Assembly (NCBI GenBank): GCA_963762575.1
Contig: CAVXLL010000014.1
Location: 235,811 to 299,810, forward strand
DNA: 64,000 nucleotides
Reading direction: 5' to 3'
Origin: an uncultured Alphaproteobacteria bacterium
Lineage (GTDB): Bacteria > Pseudomonadota > Alphaproteobacteria > ATCC43930 > CGMCC-115725
The position numbers were made by a program, and so were the translations under genes. Each line of letters opens with the position of its first letter. Position 1 is the first letter of the stretch. Below, one piece after another: positions 4,794 through 14,706 of the stretch. The notes below the pieces were generated by a model. The model had not been told where the DNA came from, made no database searches, and was given only the letters and a program-made list of their open reading frames with translations.

Positions 4794-5060
4794 ATGCCGG
4801 TTCAACGCTTCGCGCCAATGACCAAGGAGTTCGCCACCTTTGATTGCGATGCGCATGTCACGGAGCCGCCGCTGATCTGGGAGCGCGCCAAGGATTTTCT
4901 CACCCGCGACGAACTCGATGCGCTGAAGCGCACGATCTGGTGGGACGCCGACGGCCGCCTCTTGATCGTCAACGGTCGCGCCGGGATCGGTCTTGGCTCG
5001 CCGCGGCGCGGCGGCATCCCCGGCACGATGCGGGTCATCAGCAATGCCGGCCCGGGCGTC
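4794..5060 (+). pseudogene. Amidohydrolase-family gene, 5' fragment only
   Basis: GAGGAGGA RBS then MPVQRFAPMTKEFATFDCDAHVTEPPLIWERAKDFL..DALKRTIWWDADGRLLIVNG. Homology stops near 5060, where the truncated LSR gene abuts on the other strand. Confidence 0.55.
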
Positions 5061-6108
5061 AAGCATGCAGCTTGCGTCCACAATGTCCACAGCGGAGGAG
5101 TCCTACCAGAAGACCCTGGCCAGCGCGTATCGCCGCCATCAACTCGTCCCCCTCCCAGTTCACGGAATTACGCCGCATCATTCGTCGGTTCTCTTCGTAT
5201 GTGGCCCAGTGAATATAACCTACATGATGATCGCGCATGAAGACGCGGCACTCTTCGGCGGGGCGCATCGCGCTCTGACGTTTTTCAAGCCGGCCGTCCA
5301 CCAGCAACGTCGTTACCGGACGCCGTCCCCAAACATACGCGCCAGCATAGAAGGGATTGCACAAAATGTCGCGGATCAGGCTCTGCGAGGGAATCTTCCA
5401 GACCAGCCGCGTTCCCTGAATGGGGTTGGCCGGTAGCTCCACGTCGTGATCACGGAACCATTGGAATGTCTGACGCACGCTCCACAGTTCTCGAAACTTG
5501 GCGAACACGAGTTGTATCGCTTCGCAGATCCGTCGGTCGGGATGAAACACAATCTTTCCCACGGGGTCTCGGGCATACCCAACCGGGAGCCTTTTGAACA
5601 GTTCACCGCGGCGCGCTTTGGACTCCTGTCCCGCCAGCAATCGTTGGCGTAGGACCTTGAGTTCGACCACGCTGAGTGTCCCTTTGATGCCCAGCACCAA
5701 TTGATCGTCGAGAAAATTCAAATCGTAGATCTGTTGCTCGTCAGCGATAAGCGTTCCAAAGATCTGACACACCTCGAGCAGCCGACACCAGTCTTTGTCG
5801 GTGCGGGATAGCCGCGATAATTCCCGGCTGCCGACGATTCCGACCTCTCCCAGTGCCACCAAGCTGAGGACACGCTCGAAGCCTTCCCGCTGGGCGGAGG
5901 CAATGCCCGCGCTCGATCCCAGGTCACTATTGATGATCTCGACCTGCTTCCAGCCCAGAGCACGCACTCGTTCGGCCACCGCATACTGCAGCTGTTGACT
6001 TTCCTTATTCTGTCGCACTTGTCTTTCGCTGGACTGCCGAAGGTAGACGATCGCCTTCCGAGCCAGGTGCTCCGGTTTGATCTTGGCATTGTACAAAACC
6101 TCGGTCAT
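5059..6108 (-). pseudogene. Large serine recombinase, C-terminally truncated
   Basis: 349 aa: KPEHLARKAIVYLRQSSERQ (catalytic Ser region), resolvase and recombinase domains, and the start of the zinc ribbon (LLRCGHCGRKLH). It ends there, whereas the paralog at 11386-13461 has 691 aa. Confidence 0.85.
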
Positions 6109-6584
6109 TGACGCTTCCCCCCTCCTCGTGAAAGACCACTACCAGAACGCGGGCCATGAGATCGATCAGATCGGCGCGTGTCGCTGCGTCGATTGGCACG
6201 ACATCGCATTCCTTTGGGATCATCAGGTCCAGAAATTGAAGTTGCACCACGACCATCTTCCTCGCATGCGTTAACAGTCGTTTGCAGGAGGTTATCGTGA
6301 ACAGGGTCTTTGGAGTCGAGTTGTGAGGTGATCAATGAAGCGAGAGATAGGAGGGCTTCCTTACCCAGATGCGGTCGTTGCGAGATCTTGATCTCGGTGC
6401 ACTCTGGCAACAGCATCCAAACGGGAATCTTCAGTCGCCTCCCAGCTGGGTCCATGACACAGACCGCCCCATCTCCCCGCTTCGGGCTGCGAAGGATCTC
6501 CAGGGTAGCACCACGAAGCGGGTGAAAGGGGTAGAAGACCTGAACATTCGTATTACCCGCGCTCAGGGTATTGTGAGCGTGGGT
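6105..6584 (-). CDS. LSR-module accessory ORF-A homolog (start not identifiable); ORF-B-like frame 6005-6256 overlaps
   Basis: VQVFYPFHPLRGATLEIL..DPAGRRLKIPVWML parallels [28 protein letters not shown] of copy 2. The second frame (LQFLDL...ATRADLIDLMARVLVV) parallels [22 protein letters not shown]. Confidence 0.45.
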   Translation of the reverse strand, partial: THAHNTLSAGNTNVQVFYPFHPLRGATLEILRSPKRGDGAVCVMDPAGRRLKIPVWMLLPECTEIKISQRPHLGKEALLSLASLITSQLDSKDPVHDNLLQTTVNACEEDGRGATSISGPDDPKGMRCRANRRSDTRRSDRSHGPRSGSGLSRGGGKRQ

Positions 6585-6586
6585 GC

Positions 6587-7321
6587 CACCACCCGCACGT
6601 CCATCTGATTGTGCCGGGCGGCGGGATATCCCTCGATGGGACGCGCTGGGTGCGCTGCAAGCCAAACTTCCTGCTGCCGGTGCGGGTGCTGTCCCGCCTG
6701 TTCCGGCGGCTCTTCCTGACGGCTCTCGCCGACACCCACGCGGCAGGCCGGCTGGCGTTCTTTGGGGAGATCGAGGGCCTGCGTCGGCGCGAGGCCTTCG
6801 CCACGCACCTCGCGCCGCTCAAGCGCAAGAAGTGGTTCGTCTACGCCAAGCCGCCCTTCTCCGGGCCGGAAGCAGTGCTTGCCTATCTTGCCCGCTACAC
6901 CCATCGCGTCGCCATCGCGAACAGCCGGCTCATTGCTCTCGACGAGCGCGGCGTGACCTTCCAATACAAGGATTACCGCCGCAATGGGCAGGCGCGGTAC
7001 CGCACAATGACGCTCGCCGCCGACGAGTTCATCAGGCGCTTCTTGCTCCACGTTCTGCCAAAGGGCTTTCATCGCATCCGCCACTACGGGCTGCTCGCCA
7101 GCGCCAGCTGTAAGGCCAACATTGCACGCGCCAGGGAGCTGATGGCCGCCCCAATGGCGCCGGTCGATCCGCCGGCAGCGCACGACACCGCCGATCCGCA
7201 CGCCACGACCGATCATCGTCCGCCGTGCCCTTGCTGTGGCGGCCGCATGATTGTTGTCGAAGTCTTTGCGCGTGACGGCGCACCGCGCGGCCCGCCCTCC
7301 GGCGCCGGGCTCAGGACCTGA
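6587..7321 (+). pseudogene. IS91-family transposase, C-terminal part (5'-truncated)
   Basis: HHPHVHLIVPGGGISLDG..KKWFVYAKPPFSGPEAVLAYLARYTHRVAIANSRL..YKDYR..FIRRFLLHVLPKGFHRIRHYGLL and a C-terminal CPCCGG motif. The N-terminal half is absent. Confidence 0.85.
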
Positions 7322-7876: not shown

Positions 7877-9790
7877 GTGTGTCCAGGTAAGGCTAGCATG
7901 TTCAGCAGGAGGCAGTCCTGCCGGGGTAAAAGTCAGAGCCCCGTAGTTTGGATAGCGGAGGAGATGGAAACAGAACCTTCGAAGCCTATCGACAAGATCT
8001 CCCGAGGGGAGAGCACGAGTCACCGGGCTGTATCAAAAGAGAACGCATTGTGGCCTCGAAAAAAGTAGCCCCGAGGGCCGAGCCTACCTCCGAAGGGCGA
8101 AGGCAGCAGGAGCCGCCGAACACTGACCGATACGGCTTTCACCTCGGCGGGGTGGAAGCGACGGCACGGTGACAAGGACATGCTGAGCAACTGGAGAAGC
8201 CCTCCTCGTCCCGGCGCGAAATCGCCGGAGCAAGGTAGGCCGTATAACCGGCGACACCGGGAAGTCGGCCGAAGACGAGAGGGTGGCGGCTGGGTCCGGA
8301 GTAGTGAGGAAGCGGAGTAATGTCCGTGGAGCGAAGGGGCCCTGCCATTTGCAATGTCTCCAACGTAAGGAAGGCAAGGACGAGATGACAAAGGCGTCCA
8401 TCGATTTGCAGGACCTGAGGCGGAGACTATACGGCAAGGCGAAGGCTGAACCGTCCTGGCGTTTTTGGGGGCTATACGTCCACGTCTGCAAGATGGAGAC
8501 CCTGCGCGCAGCGTATGCGATGGCCAAACAAAACGATGGGGCCCCGGGAATAGACGGGGTCACGTTCGAGGCCATCGAGGCGCAAGGCGTGGAGGCTCTG
8601 CTCGAGCAGCTGCGCGACGAACTGACCGGGTGCACCTACAAGCCACTCCCAGCCCGGAAGCAGGAGATACCGAAAGACGGGGGCAAAGTCCGCGTCTTAT
8701 CGATCCCGGCGATCCGGGACAGAGTGGTGCAGGGTGCGCTCAAGCTCATCCTCGAACCTGTGTTCGAGGCGGACTTCCAACCGGGGTCGTATGGATATCG
8801 GCCCAAGCGGACAGCACACGACGCGATCAAGCGAGTGGCTGAAGCAATAGCTCAGCGGAAGACGCGGGTCCTGGACTTTGATCTGCGAGCCTACTTTGAC
8901 AATGTCCGGCATGACCGGTTGTTGGAGAAAGTGGCTCAGCGGGTCGACGACAAGGACATCATGCATCTGTTGAAACTTATGCTAAAGGCCTCTGGCAAGA
9001 AGGGCGTTCCGCAAGGCGGCGTGATCTCGCCCTTGCTCAGTAATCTCTACCTCAATGAGGTGGACAAAATGCCGGAGCGAGCGCGGGAAGTCACACGCAA
9101 CGGCAAGTACACCAATGTCGAATATGCGAGGTTCGCTGACGACCTGGTGGTCTTGATCCACGCCTACAAACGTCATGACTGGCTGATTGGAGCAGTGAAC
9201 AAGCGACTACGGGAGGAGTTCGCCAAACTGCAGGTCGAAATCAATGATGAAAAGAGCCGCAGAGTTCGACCTGGAACGAGGTGAGAACTTCGGCTTTCTG
9301 GGGTTTGACTTCCGCTACCTCCGCGGTCTGCGCGGAGTGATGCGGCCGCATTACACGCCCAAGCTCAAAAAGCGGACGGCGCTGCTGCGGGAGCTCAAGC
9401 AGGTATTTCGCCGACACCGGTCGCAACCGATTGAGAGGGTGATAAGCCTGATCAATCCAATGCTGCGGGGGTGGGTCAACTACTTCGCGGTGGGGAACTC
9501 TAGCGAGTGCTTCACCCACATCAGAGATTGGGTAGAGAAGAAGGTCAGGCGCCAGCTGGCGCATGCTCGGAAACGAAAGGGCTTCGGCTGGGAGCGGTGG
9601 AGTAGGCCGTGGCTGTATGACACTCTAGGGCTGTTCAACAGCTATCGAGTGCGACACGACGGACCGAAAGTTGCCCCGGCATGATAGGTCCCATAAGCCC
9701 TGAAGTGAAGCAAATGGGGGCGCGCAGTGCGGGAAATCCGCATGCTGCGTGCGACGTGGAGGGGGCTGGAAACGTGGCACGGTCGGGATA
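7877..9790 (+). mobile_element. Group II intron (boundaries approximate)
   Basis: Begins with GTGTG (GUGYG consensus) at 7877. Contains an RT/maturase ORF in the domain IV position. Candidate domain V at 9722-9750 (GCGCAGUGCGGGAAAUCCGCAUGCUGCGU, GAAA-type loop, 2-nt bulge). The 3' end is not pinned. Confidence 0.7.
8385..9684 (+). pseudogene. Group II intron reverse transcriptase/maturase, one frameshift near 9255-9265
   Basis: RT motifs (GAPGIDGVTFEAIE, RVLSIPAIRDRVVQGA, YGYRPKRTAHDA, GVPQGGVISPLLSNLYLNEVD, FADDLVVL) in frame 8283-9284. The maturase X domain (LINPMLRGWVNYF) continues in frame 9244-9684. No endonuclease domain seen. Confidence 0.85.
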
Positions 9791-10518: not shown

Positions 10519-10813
10519 TCCTCGCCGCCCGCCCCATAGCGTCTCTCGGTCCCCCGCAGGGGAGCCGCGATTTTGATGCCGCCCGTAGCCGCGAACTTGA
10601 CTTGCTGAACAAATCCACCGGCAGAGGAGGCGAGATGTATTAGTCGAGACTTGGTCTGACAGACGCTGTTGGTTGATTGAGCCTGTATAGCTGTTGCCGG
10701 TCTTCAGGCGGCCATGAGTTTCTCCTTCGCCAGTGGGATTTCGTCAAGGAAGGTCTGCATCGGAGTCTTGCCGAAGCACCAGCGGCCCTGATGCGGTCGA
10801 CGATAGTTGTACA

Positions 10814-11392
10814 AAGCGACGAGATAACGCCCATAAGATCGAGGAGCTTGAGGTCCTCTACCCGTGGCATCCGTGGTTCGGACGGGTTGTTCATGTCCAT
10901 GAGGTGATCGAGCAACGAGCCGGCGGCGTCCTTCACTGCAGTCCGGATGGCGACGCTTCACGGCGTTGGCTTGAGCTGCCGCAGTGGATGTTCGACCGTG
11001 CGGCATGCCTGGCGATCCGCATGGCGGCCTCACCGCGTGTCGATACCACGGCGCTCATCGCCTTGAAGACGTGTCTTGCGGACGCGTCGGATGCTGGCTT
11101 GTGCGGCGGCCCTCTATCGAATGCCTCTGCTTCTGGTGCAGGGAGGAACTCCTGCGACCAGAATCAGGGAGCTGCCCGTGCGACACAAGTACCGACGTCC
11201 ACCCAGCCATCAGGCCGCCGTCAAGCAGTTAGATCTATTCGGTCTGCCAGGCGCGAAGCACCCGACCCCGGTGTTAGAGTGGCAGCAGCTGCCGGAGGAG
11301 ACCCGCCAGATGGTCACCGGGCTGATGGTGCACCTACTCGTCAACCACCAACGCCGCGATCGCGAGCCCAACTCGATAGGAAGGCGTGGTGA
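10814..11392 (+). CDS. LSR-element ORF-A (conserved YPWHPW protein); no canonical start inside the element; true end uncertain
   Basis: The frame is open from the left element end. Conserved with copy 1 ([28 protein letters not shown]). First in-frame GTG/ATG lies downstream of the conserved N-terminal motif. Confidence 0.45.
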
Positions 11393-11399
11393 TGTCTGA
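11076..11399 (+). CDS. LSR-element ORF-B (small protein overlapping the recombinase start)
   Basis: [42 protein letters not shown] is conserved with the second frame of copy 1. Its stop overlaps the LSR start by 8-14 nt. Confidence 0.45.
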
Positions 11400-13461
11400 C
11401 AAGATCAAGCCGCACCATCTGGCACGCAAAGCGCTTCTCTATGTGCGGCAATCTTCGACCCACCAGCTTCTGCACAACCGCGAGAGCCAGGCGCTGCAGT
11501 ATGCCATGCGGGATCGGCTCGTGGCGCTTGGCCGGTCCGAGGTCGACACGGTGGACGACGATCTCGGGCGATCTGCCGCGGGCGGCGTGACGCGCGTCGG
11601 GTTCGAACGGATGGTAGCCGAGGTCTGCCTCGGCAAAGTCGGCGCGGTAGCGGCCCGCGAAGTCTCCCGCTTCGCGCGCAACAGCCGCGATTGGCAGCAG
11701 CTGATCGAGATGTGCCGCGTGGTTGACACCGTCTTGATCGACCAGGAGATGGTCTACGCACCGCGCCAAGGCAACGACCGACTGTTGCTCGGCCTCAAGG
11801 GAAGCCTCAACGAGTATGAGCTCGATCTCTTACGGCAACGATCATTGTCGGCCCGCTACGAAAAGGCGCGGCGGGGTGAACTAATCGTTGCAGCGCCGGT
11901 CGGCTTCGTGAAGGTGGGCGACCATCTCGAGAAGGATCCAGATCGCCGGGTACAGGGAGCGATCGAACTGGTCTTCGACAAGGTGGCCGAACTGGGCAGC
12001 GCGCGCCAGGCGCTCCTGTGGTTCCGCGAACACGGCCTCAAGCTGCCCGTGAAGCAGAGCAACGGTGAAGTCGAATGGCGCAGCCCCCGCTATGCCAGCA
12101 TCCATCGGATGATCACCAACCCGATCTATGGCGGTGCCTACGCTTACGGAAAGACCAGCGTCACCGTGCACTACGACGGCATCATGGCTCGCGCCAAGAG
12201 CCGACGCAAGCCGCGCGAGGAATGGCTAGCATTGCGCCCAGGCACCCATGAGGGCTATGTCGATTGGGAGCGCTCGGAGGCGATCCGCAGGATGGTCAGC
12301 GACAACATCCCAAACAGCCGGCATCACGGCGCTGCCAAGCACGGCGACGCGCTGCTCGCGGGTCTGATCAGGTGTCACCGGTGCGGGCGCAAACTTACGA
12401 TCCGCTACACGGGCGCAAAGCACAATATCCCCCGCTACAGCTGCAGCCGGGGCTGGCTCGACAATGGCGAGCCGCGTTGCATCGCCTTTGGCGGTTTGCG
12501 GGTGGACGATGCCATTGAAGCGGCGATCCTGAAAGTTGTTGAACCAAGCGCCATTGCCGCAGCGATCGAGGCCGATGCGCAGGAAGCGGCGCGTCGCGAC
12601 GAGGTCCGCGACGCCTTGGTCCGAGACCTGGAAGCAATGCGCTATACCGCCGATCGCGCCTTCCGACAATACGACGCGACCGATCCCGCCAATCGTCTGG
12701 TGGCAGCAGAGCTGGAACTGCGCTGGAACCGGGCATTGACACGCGTCAGCGAGATGGAGGCGCGCATTGCCGCTCACTATAGGGCGGCGCCCCCTCGGTC
12801 GGAACTCTCAGCGGTCTCTTTCGTGACCCTCGCCGATGACTTGCAAACGGTGTGGCAAGCGCCGACGACCGATGTGCGGTTGAAGAAACGGATCGTCCGC
12901 GCGGTGATTAAGGAGGTAGTCGCCGATGTCGACGCCGAGGCCGGCGAGATCATTCTGTTTCTCCACTGGATGGGTGGGATTCATACGGAGTTGCGCCTGC
13001 CCAGACGTCGACGCGGGCAACGTGATAGCACGTCACAGGACATCGTCGCCGCCGTTCGACAGCTTGTCCTGATCGCCAATGATGAACTGATTGCCGGTAT
13101 TCTCAATCGCAACAAGCTGACCACGGGCCGTGGCAATCGCTGGACCCGGGAACGAGTGACGGCGCTTCGATCGCATCACAAGATCCCGGTCTATTGTCCT
13201 CCTGAGCAAGGTCAAGAGCCGTGGCTCAATCTGAGCAAGGCCGCAGCGTATCTGCAGATCAGTTCCAAGACCTTGCGCTTGGCCGCCGAGGGCGGCGAAA
13301 TCGACGCGCTACACCCCTTGCCGGACGGACCTTGGATCCTCAGCCGCGCCGTCCTCGACAGCACCGCGGCGAAGGTCGTGGTCCGTCGCGCCCGGAACCG
13401 CGCAAAACACCCCTCGGGACCGCATCCTGATCAACAAAATCTCTTCTCTTCAATTGCATAG
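11386..13461 (+). CDS. Large serine recombinase (resolvase/invertase N-domain + recombinase domain + zinc ribbon + coiled coil)
   Basis: 691 aa: [20 protein letters not shown] (catalytic Ser), [50 protein letters not shown] zinc ribbon, and a long C-terminal helical region. The start may be the ATG at 11392. Confidence 0.93.
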
Positions 13462-14706
13462 ATAGATGGGTGTGATGAAGCGGGGTTGTACTCGATCAAC
13501 CAGGCGTCCAGGTCGGCCTGCAGCTCGTCGATCGAGTGATAGATCTTCTTGCGGAAAGCGATGCGATAGAATTCATCCAATACAGTGCGATGGAAGCGCT
13601 CACAAATTCCGTTCGTTTTGCGGGCTCTTGGTCTTGGTGCGGCTGTGATCAATGTCCTCAACCGCGAGATAGAGCTCGTATTCATGGCTTTGGGTGCCGC
13701 AAAACTCGGTGCCGCGATCGGTCAGCACGCGCGACAGGCGGATGCCGTGCTCGTCATAAAACGGCACCACCCGGTCATTGAGGATCTCGGCCGCGGTGAT
13801 CGGGGTCTTGCGGTCATAGAGCTTGGCGAAGGCGACCTTGGCATAGGTGTCGATGAAAGTCTGCTGATAGACCCGCCCCACACCCTTCAGCGTGCCGACG
13901 TAGAAGGTGTCCTGGGCACCGCAATAGCCTGGGCACTCGCTCTCGAACTCGCCATGCGCCTCCTTGTCGGTCTTGGCCTTCTCGAGGGCGGCGATCTGGG
14001 TTTCGGTGAGCAGGATGCCATCCTGCGCCACCTTGGCCTCGAGCGCCTTCAGGCGCAGCTTCATCGACGTCAGGTCGTGGCGCTGCCACACGCAGCGCAC
14101 CCCGGCCGGCGAGATCGACAGACCCCGCCGCTTCAGCGCCTCCGAGATGCGCACCTGGCCCCAGGCCGGCTGCTCGATCGCCAGCGCCACCACCGCCTGT
14201 TCGATCTCGATCGGTGTGCGGTTCTTTAGGATCGGCTTGCGGCGGCTGATCTCCTGCAATGCCAGCTCGCCGCCTTTGTCGTACAGCTCCTTGAAACGGT
14301 AAAAGCTGTCCCGGCTGTATCCAATCATTTTGCAGGCTTGGCTGACATTGCCAAGCTGCTTGGCCAGCTCCAATAACCCCACCTTCGCCCGAATGATCTT
14401 TTGCTCTTGCGTCATGTCGTGATCTCCGTCCCGCCGAAGGGCGGGTCGCGGTCCCAGCTCGGGGTGAGAACCGCGCCCCGCCCTCCGGCTCACTTCGGAA
14501 AATCAACAACGTTTGTCAGATTAAGTCCAAGCTATTACAAATGATTTGAGCGGCGGCTGCACGGCGAGGATCACGGTCGCGCCCTTGGCGGCAACGGCCG
14601 GGGCATATCGGCAGAATTGCAGTGTGTCACCGAGGCCTTGCTCCGCGTGAATGAAGATGGTCTTTCCCGATATGTCTTCCTTGCCGAGCCAAAGCGGCGC
14701 TGCGAT

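Follow-up and report, generated by a model that had tools for sequence, protein, structure and literature searches.

How can a gene be translated when the integrated mobile element that carries it has no start codon in front of it? This question is raised by a 2.68-kb element of the large serine recombinase (LSR) type at about 10810-13490 of the window, i.e., the whole stretch of 64,000 nucleotides of alphaproteobacterial DNA that was analyzed. The element (copy 2 of the window) interrupts a DDE transposase gene on the minus strand, whose upstream part (HTH plus rve, ending ...DAWLIE) lies at 13491..14493 and whose downstream part, beginning YNYRRPHQG (rve_3 motif), lies at 10704..10809. Three genes are found on its plus strand. 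ORF-A (10814..11392) has YPWHPW region motifs and no start codon, ORF-B (11178..11399, 73 aa) has a GTG start with GGGAG upstream, and the LSR (11386..13461) starts at GTG 11386 or ATG 11392 and has the Pfam domains Resolvase PF00239 (E 1.2e-16), Recombinase PF07508 (E 9.6e-16) and Zn_ribbon_recom PF13408 (E 1.4e-08).

The ORF-A codons of the window, read from 10814, are AAG CGA CGA GAT AAC GCC CAT AAG ATC GAG GAG CTT GAG GTC CTC TAC CCG TGG, and ATG, GTG and TTG are all absent from this frame between the left end of the element and the YPWHPW motif, as the initial annotation had claimed. It had also placed start codons at the opposite end, and these are where it put them: the LSR stop TAG (13459-13461) is followed by a further in-frame TAG (13463-13465) and by ATGs at 13466 and 13475. 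When the ends are joined at their common core, the sequence becomes ATG GGT GTG ATG AAG CGG GGT TGT ACA AAG CGA..., and translation of this junction runs from the right-end ATG into the frame of ORF-A, as had been proposed. The joined-end read is predicted as ...ATGAAACAGGATTGTACAACACGACGA... Within the window there is a single occurrence of each end pattern, left and right, where 0.02 and 0.00, respectively, would be expected. The left-flank side of the ORF-A frame is also open, and the ORF listing gives 10733..11392 with a GTG start in flanking DNA, so the lack of a start is true of the element's own sequence and not of the whole integrated locus.

The core shared by the two ends is shorter than first described. 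GTTGTAC is found at 10806-10812 and again at 13485-13491, and these seven bases are indeed identical at both ends in the window, but the sole identity between attL and attR across loci is the dinucleotide TA (10810..10811, plus strand, and 13489-90). The longer identity in the window exists because the target happens to resemble the element's site. The flanks vary at positions -2 and +1, which rules out GT and AC as crossover dinucleotides, and one locus (L074) has TG in place of TA at both junctions. Insertion is conservative: both junctions share the 2-bp core, the target is not otherwise duplicated, and it is restored upon removal of the element. The elements sit antisense in transposase genes at conserved motif codons, and an uninterrupted ..[YF][NH]..R[PT]H is regained in 31 of the 37 targets that were reconstructed.

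The arms of the attachment site double as coding sequence. The left arm (P', CAAAGCGACGAGATAACGCCCAT, 10812..10834, plus strand) is conserved in 69 distinct left ends and encodes the ORF-A residues (C)TKRRDNAH, while the right arm (P, ATGGGTGTGATGAAGCGGGGTTGTA, 13466..13490, plus strand) carries ATG 13466, ATG 13475 and then K R G C, i.e., the detached head of ORF-A, together with the right TA. AACGCCCA of the left arm matches TGGGTGTT of the right end in inverted orientation, and imperfect inverted-repeat half-sites (TGGGYGTT / AACRCCCA) flank the core at a distance of ~15-22 nt, with TTG/CAA adjoining the core itself. The crossover TA falls between ORF-A codon 5 or 8 (Cys, TGT) and the following codon (Thr, ACA), and the attP of the free element lies inside the first ORF-A codons. 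With attP in this position, integration separates the start and a few further codons, which come to lie at the right end just behind the LSR stop, from the remainder of ORF-A, which lies 2.7 kb off at the left end and lacks a start. The explanation that we consider probable is that the free element rejoins an ORF-A that integration had cut within its first codons.

The comparison within the lineage of the window element (family 1) covers 80 genome loci among the matches listed, with 132 further loci matched. At least 9 copies are present in Bradyrhizobium erythrophlei GAS478. Among the loci listed there are 69 distinct left ends, 22 distinct right ends and 37 loci with both ends. Two decayed loci (L006 and L060), whose right ends are aberrant owing to a terminal deletion and a disrupted LSR, were set aside and are not counted as counter-examples. 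The family 1 right end is conserved as CATAG-N4-ATGGGTGTT-ATG-AAA-CAG-GAT-TGTA, and an open in-frame junction ORF is found in all 37 both-end loci among the matches listed. ATG stands at codon -4 in 12 of the 22 distinct right ends and at codon -3 in 8, where codon -4 is GTG, GTA, CTG or CAA, and the remaining 2 have GTG at -4 plus ATG at -7. Codon -3 is free to vary when ATG is at -4, and codon -4 is free when ATG is at -3. The other two frames have ATG in 1/22 and 0/22 right ends. From the left end to the motif there are no frame-0 stops (0/52), compared with 6/52 and 27/52 in the other frames, and indels in this stretch come in multiples of three, giving lengths of 16, 17 or 19 codons. The initial annotation had suggested comparing further copies and had named frame-incompatible ends as a finding that would speak against it; none occur among the 37 both-end loci, no stop precedes the motif, and the right-end ATG with its frame is kept in all 37 and in all 22 distinct right ends. 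Judged from these patterns, the conserved frame relationship is not due to chance, and the right-end ATG behaves like a start codon under selection.

The left ends offer little in the way of a substitute start. An internal canonical start is absent in 56 of the 69 distinct left ends; the internal GTG or TTG codons of the other 13 are sporadic and at differing positions, and no conserved internal start or RBS was found among them. A start of their own, another finding that could have undermined the proposal, was not found in the ORF-A homologues either (136 at E<=0.001). Their predicted N-termini upstream of the core are mutually unrelated and, ahead of the conserved 'CT', flank-derived.

Family 2, the lineage of window copy 1, is homologous to family 1 and has the same layout, with 26% identity in ORF-A and 43% in the recombinase, and ORF-B is absent. 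Copy 1 itself (5059..6586, minus strand) is a truncated sister-lineage element consisting of an ORF-A with YPFHP and the first 349 aa of the LSR, inserted antisense in an IS91-type transposase at the HHPHVH motif. Its left end (GCACCC...) starts at 6586, and the annotated lack of a canonical start from this junction to YPFHP holds; its right end is missing because the LSR is truncated at 5059. The family 2 right end reads AAGGAGatgataATG..ATGAGTGAGGGTTC, and the 3' end of the recombinase gene contains a canonical AAGGAG-N6-ATG that has a long in-frame continuation only across the junction. On three metagenome contigs (L091-L093) the LSR tail, SD-ATG, core and ORF-A follow each other in frame across the junction, and five database proteins begin with M(P/A)GI(M/L)SEGS and continue as ORF-A sequence. 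Removal of an integrated family 2 copy (L087) at the core AG restores the IS91 motif GQNLLLHPHIHCLV in frame, and this core agrees with the junction proteins. GAGG and ATG were rejected as the family 2 core, as each breaks the IS91 frame on restoration. The split and a conserved in-frame right-end ATG thus occur in two homologous lineages with different targets.

Conserved ends could also have another cause. It is improbable, in our assessment, that the right-end ATG is merely a part of the recombinase site with an incidental frame, and that the integrated ORF-A is read from the flank or from a non-canonical internal start. The ATGGGTGTT/AACGCCCAC inverted repeat is typical of attP half-sites, so ATG 13466 and the 'NAH' residues may be kept as DNA and not as coding sequence, and part of the end conservation reflects recombinase binding and not coding. 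However, the ATG at -4 or -3 lies in a non-symmetric linker whose left-arm mirror positions vary freely, and yet the in-frame ATG is retained throughout, moving between two neighboring codons. An in-frame flank start is present in 43 of the 69 integrated copies, including GTG 10733 of the window copy, and gene callers adopt such starts; some translation of an N-terminally extended ORF-A from integrated copies is therefore conceivable. Yet the flank starts lie 2 to 60 codons out and lack a common ribosome-binding site, and 20 of the 69 left ends have no start whatsoever up to the nearest in-frame flank stop, some of these stops being 0-3 codons from the core. An incidental ATG would also fit the finding that no canonical SD precedes the family 1 right-end ATG, except in L037. 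Against this stands the full AAGGAG-N6-ATG of family 2. In family 1, the distance of 4 nt from the LSR stop to the first ATG suggests re-initiation.

Right-end-to-left-end junctions are found in assembled DNA at L029 and L081-L084 (family 1) and on the three family 2 contigs, all in frame. A scan of viral_contigs with both junction patterns gave 0 matches. The contigs with these junctions are of short length, and three or more of them are heterotypic tandems or lie beside a right-end remnant, so they are no proof of free circles; the junction DNA would fit a circle or a tandem alike, which assemblies do not tell apart. We consider it quite improbable that the split gene is real but that the relevant restored state is a chromosomal tandem, head to tail or beside a right-end remnant, and not a free circle, with constitutive expression of ORF-A in such arrays. 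Such arrangements do exist, as the finished genome of a Bradyrhizobium contains the heterotypic tandem L029, and two of the family 1 metagenome contigs (L081 and L082, of L081-L084) have a full element behind a right-end stretch of just 129 or 220 nt. Nevertheless, tandems are seldom seen (1 of the 80 genome loci among the matches listed), the majority of copies are single insertions in transposase genes, and the three family 2 junction contigs have a continuous LSR tail. The tandem is a complement to the circle more than a competitor.

That ORF-A is non-coding, with conservation stemming from the 5' attachment site and the overlapping 3' ORF-B, is highly improbable: although its C-terminal half is low-complexity and overlapped by ORF-B, and neither Pfam nor NCBIfam assigned a family to the ORF-A or ORF-B of copy 2, the residues with the strongest conservation (YPWHPW and a second motif) are situated between the attachment site and ORF-B and show mainly synonymous variation, AF2 is confident over this core (pLDDT 84-93), family 2 has a homologous ORF-A without ORF-B, and almost every intact element has an open frame of ~170 codons that ends exactly where the LSR begins. 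The TGA of this frame (11390-11392 in the window) overlaps the LSR start as ATGA or GTGA, again in nearly all intact elements, which makes translational coupling plausible. ORF-B is nested in the 3' half of ORF-A, in the +1 frame, has the motifs QLDLF and W..LP.ETR..L..LM..LL..H, and keeps its own SD and start across the family. A joining of ORF-A and ORF-B by frameshifting, as suggested by the fusion P0070, was rejected in view of this conserved SD and start. A PDB fold search with the AF2 model of the ORF-A N-domain (pLDDT 71) gave nothing significant, the best hits (E at least 0.097) being small beta-barrels of KOW or Tudor type. Against DUF5372 (gathering threshold 25 bits), copy 2 ORF-A gave no match, copy 1 reached 18.9 bits (E 0.0016), and none of 19 aligned family members matches. 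Some family 2 proteins have a weak precomputed DUF5372 match. Neither sequence nor fold matched ORF-A or ORF-B to a recombination directionality factor.

If the free element rejoins the split ORF-A, the parts would come together into a translatable gene when the element is excised as a circle or lies in a tandem of any kind. Transcription would arrive at the right-end ATG from within or around the circle, and this ATG would be reached by re-initiation after the LSR stop in family 1 and via the AAGGAG-N6-ATG inside the LSR 3' end in family 2. Through the stop/start overlap, ribosomes on ORF-A could be handed to the recombinase start. The free element would then make ORF-A, and probably more recombinase, at the time when it must reintegrate or be lost, and the integrated copy would be quiet. 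The initial annotation had gone further and suggested that the ORF-A/ORF-B/LSR operon as a whole is assembled or activated after excision. This stands for ORF-A, but ORF-B and the LSR are each equipped with an SD and a start; since only ORF-A is assembled by joining, activation of the whole operon would depend on the ATGA overlap.

A more far-reaching version, which we regard as doubtful, is that the split ORF-A is a two-state sensor for a directionality switch without a separate RDF, and that the family is a new class of hyperparasitic LSR elements homing to transposase motif codons. In the integrated state ORF-A would be untranslatable, and ORF-B (own SD, Q[LF][DE]LF) and basal LSR would be made, permitting excision at a low rate. 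Once the element is circular, translation that begins at the right-end ATG would run through and occlude the ORF-B start, and the ATGA overlap would deliver it to the LSR start, resulting in an LSR-rich state that drives reintegration. The targets in question are the YN..RPH codons of rve enzymes and the HPHxH codons of IS91 enzymes.

Junction-dependent expression is known from several systems. In IS911, IS30, IS21 and others, the junction of a circle or tandem dimer forms a strong promoter that is absent from the integrated copy, with the -35 box of a DDE transposase element in one end and the -10 box in the other; to our knowledge, no coding sequence spans these junctions. The present element is similar in that a transient circular or tandem form makes an expression signal, and differs in that a coding frame spans the junction. 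A consensus scan of 10600-13700, limited to sigma-70-like promoters, gave none near either end or across the junction, and neither -35/-10 hexamers brought together nor an outward-facing end promoter. The analogy to IS junction promoters drawn in the initial annotation is therefore functional and not mechanistic.

In the clostridial Tn4451/Tn4453, whose LSR is TnpX, the circular intermediate forms the tnpX promoter (Lyras and Rood, 2000, cited in PMC13023037). As portrayed in that citing paper, Tn4451 resembles our case as an LSR element whose excised circle turns on expression over the joined ends, which favors reintegration of a non-replicating circle. However, Tn4451 assembles a promoter and acts on the recombinase gene, whereas here a reading frame would be assembled, with the start at one end and the body at the other, and it belongs to an accessory ORF in a 2.7-kb element with no cargo and no junction promoter detected. 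ICEclc Pcirc and ICEKp1 P3'end are far-end promoters that drive int only after circularization (PMC13023037). They share the state-dependent expression, with a 3'-end signal joined via attP to a 5'-end gene, but belong to tyrosine-recombinase ICEs, use a transcriptional signal, and leave int with its own start codon. The 'suicidal' integrases of SSV type in archaeal viruses and plasmids have attP inside int, which is split upon integration, and such split-integrase systems are stated to be known only in archaea (PMC8371274). In both cases the element's attachment site is part of one of its own coding sequences, integration splits the gene and excision restores it. There, the gene split mid-gene is the tyrosine recombinase itself, while here the recombinase is intact, the core lies 28-29 nt past its stop and inside ORF-A, and the accessory gene loses its first 5-8 codons. 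A description of this family was not found in the literature on DUF5372, serine-recombinase elements targeting transposase genes, or start codons split across attP. Compared with these systems, excision-activated expression via a completed reading frame, and not via a joined promoter, appears to be a new variant.

For annotators, the split means that ORF-A homologues in databases bear spurious N-termini from flanking DNA. Genome engineers may be interested in the defined 50-bp sites and in natural targets that are repeated many times per genome. The family is abundant in soil, the 90%-identity cluster of the window LSR having 780 members, and inserts antisense and with single-codon precision at motif codons of IS transposases. 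Elements with a non-replicating circle must know their own state, and in the systems known so far this is achieved with a promoter that is joined to a gene. In the present element it would instead be a reading frame that the junction completes, an all-or-none translational switch that would require no regulator and that offers a simple, testable model of how excision versus integration may be controlled in minimal serine-recombinase elements.

Copy 2, the intact 2.68-kb element, sits within a DDE transposase gene on the minus strand and splits it precisely between ...DAWLIE and YNYRRPHQG (target at 10704-10811 and 13491-14493). The initial annotation proposed that ORF-A (body 10814-11392, plus strand) has no start codon while the element is integrated and gains one when the ends are joined. 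The GTTGTAC pair it described lies at 10806-10812 and 13485-13491, and the TAG stop of the large serine recombinase (LSR; 13459-13461), the second in-frame TAG (13463-13465) and the ATG codons at 13466 and 13475 are also in place. Read from 10814, the ORF-A codons are AAG CGA CGA GAT AAC GCC CAT AAG ATC GAG GAG CTT GAG GTC CTC TAC CCG TGG, with no ATG, GTG or TTG up to TAC CCG TGG. The missing start holds for the element's own codons but not for the flank, where the frame remains open and an ORF call (10733..11392) starts at a GTG. Joining the ends places the right-end ATG codons in the ORF-A frame, as seen from 30 residues translated across the junction.

The LSR (11386-13461, plus strand, 691 aa) carries a Resolvase, a Recombinase and a Zn-ribbon domain. 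Almost every intact relative has an ORF-A-frame TGA that lies behind the Shine-Dalgarno sequence GGGAGGAG and overlaps the start codon of the LSR (ATGA or GTGA), which suggests translational coupling; an A invariably opens the second LSR codon and so preserves the TGA. At 11386-11392 the overlap reads GTGATG in copy 2, and ATGA in most relatives. ORF-A matched no Pfam or NCBIfam family, and its N-domain, modelled as a small beta-barrel followed by helices (core pLDDT 84-93), gave no significant structural match. Within its 3' half, ORF-B (11178-11399, plus strand) is read in the +1 frame from a start of its own, GGGAG-N6-GTG, and has the conserved sequence Q[LF][DE]LF ... W..LP.ETR..L..LM.RLIL.H. 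The first of these motifs, with which ORF-B begins, resembles the beta-clamp-binding pentapeptide QL[SD]LF. ORF-B measures 60-73 aa and is found in every clade checked of family 1, the relatives of copy 2, and is missing from family 2, the lineage of the truncated copy 1.

Searching one genome per species yielded at least 80 related loci, mostly in alpha-proteobacteria, with at least nine copies in Bradyrhizobium erythrophlei GAS478. Family 1 (L002-L074) inserts antisense and with single-codon precision just 5' of YN..R(P/T)H in rve/rve_3 DDE transposases of several IS families; among 37 reconstructed targets the antisense arrangement occurred 31 times and the sense arrangement never. Left ends align as flank..T(G/A/C)T followed by ACA ACN CGA CGA CNG AAC GCC CAC ... 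EVLYPWHPW, and right ends as CATAG-N4-ATG GGT GTT ATG AAA CAG GAT TGTA followed by flank. Only TA is common to both junctions (TG in L074), and TA is therefore the crossover dinucleotide. The shared TA of copy 2 (10810-10811, 13489-13490) is palindromic, yet the elements face strictly one way relative to the target gene. Polarity in serine integrases is normally dictated by the central dinucleotide. The target of copy 2 is apparently frame-broken, as minus-strand ORFs 13600-14493 and 13431-13685 overlap (13600-13685) where one gene is expected.

The frame relationship and the right-end ATG are kept in further copies, with an open junction ORF in all 37 loci that have both ends (22 distinct right ends). 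Counted back from the core TGT, ATG occupies codon -4 in 12 of the 22, with a variable codon -3 (AAA, AAG, AAT, ACT, GCT, CAG, ATG), and codon -3 in another eight, with a variable codon -4 (GTG, GTA, CTG, CAA); the last two combine GTG at -4 with ATG at -7. The other two frames contain an ATG in 1/22 and 0/22. An in-frame ATG that hops between adjacent codons is the pattern that start-codon selection would predict. Between left end and motif, frame 0 has no stop in 52 distinct sequences, compared with 6 and 27 for the two alternative frames, and length varies by whole codons only.

Internal canonical starts are absent from 56 of 69 distinct left ends and sporadic in the other 13, as GTG or TTG at different codons. 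A flank start occurs 2-60 codons away in 43/69, and 20/69 lack any start ahead of the closest in-frame flank stop; in some, that stop is 0-3 codons from the core. The N-termini of ORF-A homologues in databases are unrelated upstream of the conserved 'CT' and are gene-caller extensions into flanking DNA. Proteins P0001-P0120 and P0146-P0265 mostly carry such spurious extensions, from flanking antisense transposase DNA, and some match Pfam families, e.g., Y2_Tnp.

The ends contain an inverted repeat (TGGGYGTT), ATGGGTGTT on the right and AACGCCCAC on the left, and these most likely are the outer motifs that the recombinase binds in attP, the site of the free element. Given this putative binding repeat, it may be the DNA sequence, not the encoded peptide, that is conserved at ATG 13466 and the 'NAH' residues. 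The case for a selected start rests on the codon -4/-3 ATG, located in the non-symmetric linker of the site, whose mirror positions in the left arm vary freely, and on family 2.

Copy 1 (5059-6586, minus strand) is a truncated relic, 26% identical to copy 2 in ORF-A (BLASTP E 4e-09) and 43% in the LSR. Its right end is unreadable in the window because of the truncation. Only the first 349 aa of the LSR remain, up to 5059, where unrelated DNA takes over, and the IS91-type transposase hosting it resumes at 6587-7321 (plus strand). Between the two copies lie a group II intron (7903-8038, plus strand; Rfam RF02003, 105.5 bits) and then a reverse-transcriptase/maturase ORF (8283-9684, plus strand). 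Family 2 relatives contain ORF-A and LSR only, antisense at LLL|HPHxH in IS91-type transposases; subtracting the element with its AG core from L087 restores GQNLLLHPHIHCLV in frame. Elements of both families are parasites of insertion sequences. At the family 2 right end, a canonical ribosome-binding site plus start codon falls within the LSR 3' end, with the sequence AAGGAGatgataATG CCN GGN ATN ATG AGT GAG GGT TC and then the core. LSR tail, SD-ATG, core and ORF-A follow one another in frame on three independent metagenome contigs (L091-L093), and five database proteins start M(P/A)GI(M/L)SEGS, then (G)TH(A/P)HNTLSA..VQVFYPFHP. Thus, the split-gene layout is common to two homologous lineages with different targets, which is hard to account for except by function.

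When genomes and metagenome contigs were searched for right-end sequence joined to left-end sequence, one genome locus (L029) and four contigs (L081-L084) matched, all in frame. L029 is a heterotypic tandem, L083 could be homotypic, and the full element of L081 and L082 comes after a right-end remnant of only 129 or 220 nt. The joined configuration exists, and is compatible with free circle and tandem alike. In L081 (300-428), L082 (1532-1750) and L029 (7633-7680), adjoining sequence supplies the missing start to an integrated copy, the upstream neighbour being a short right-end remnant or a different family member. One possible origin of these arrangements is integration into attL or attR, the junctions of an integrated element.

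The closest analogues are Tn4451, described as having a circle-junction promoter for TnpX, ICEclc and ICEKp1 with promoters of comparable type, Pcirc and P3'end (PMC13023037), and the archaeal SSV-type integrases, in which attP lies inside an integrase gene that is split on integration, a system known only from archaea according to the review (PMC8371274). Unlike these, the present element is bacterial and serine-recombinase based, its recombinase stays intact, and what is assembled is the start codon of an accessory gene together with 5-8 of its codons. Our literature search found no paper describing this transposase-gene-targeting recombinase family, which is apparently undescribed.

A sigma-70 consensus scan found no sigma-70-like promoter near the element ends. 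The 4-nt gap from LSR stop to first ATG is conserved in family 1, suggesting re-initiation on a transcript running round the circle. We propose that attP lies inside the first codons of ORF-A, so that integration would detach its start and excision or tandem joining would restore it. Given the overlap of the ORF-A stop with the LSR start, translating ORF-A may boost recombinase production from the free form, which is unable to replicate and has to reintegrate. Conservation and covariation in two lineages support the interpretation that the ORF-A start is restored only across joined ends. Collectively, our sequence comparisons support the split ORF-A as a putative new form of excision-activated expression.
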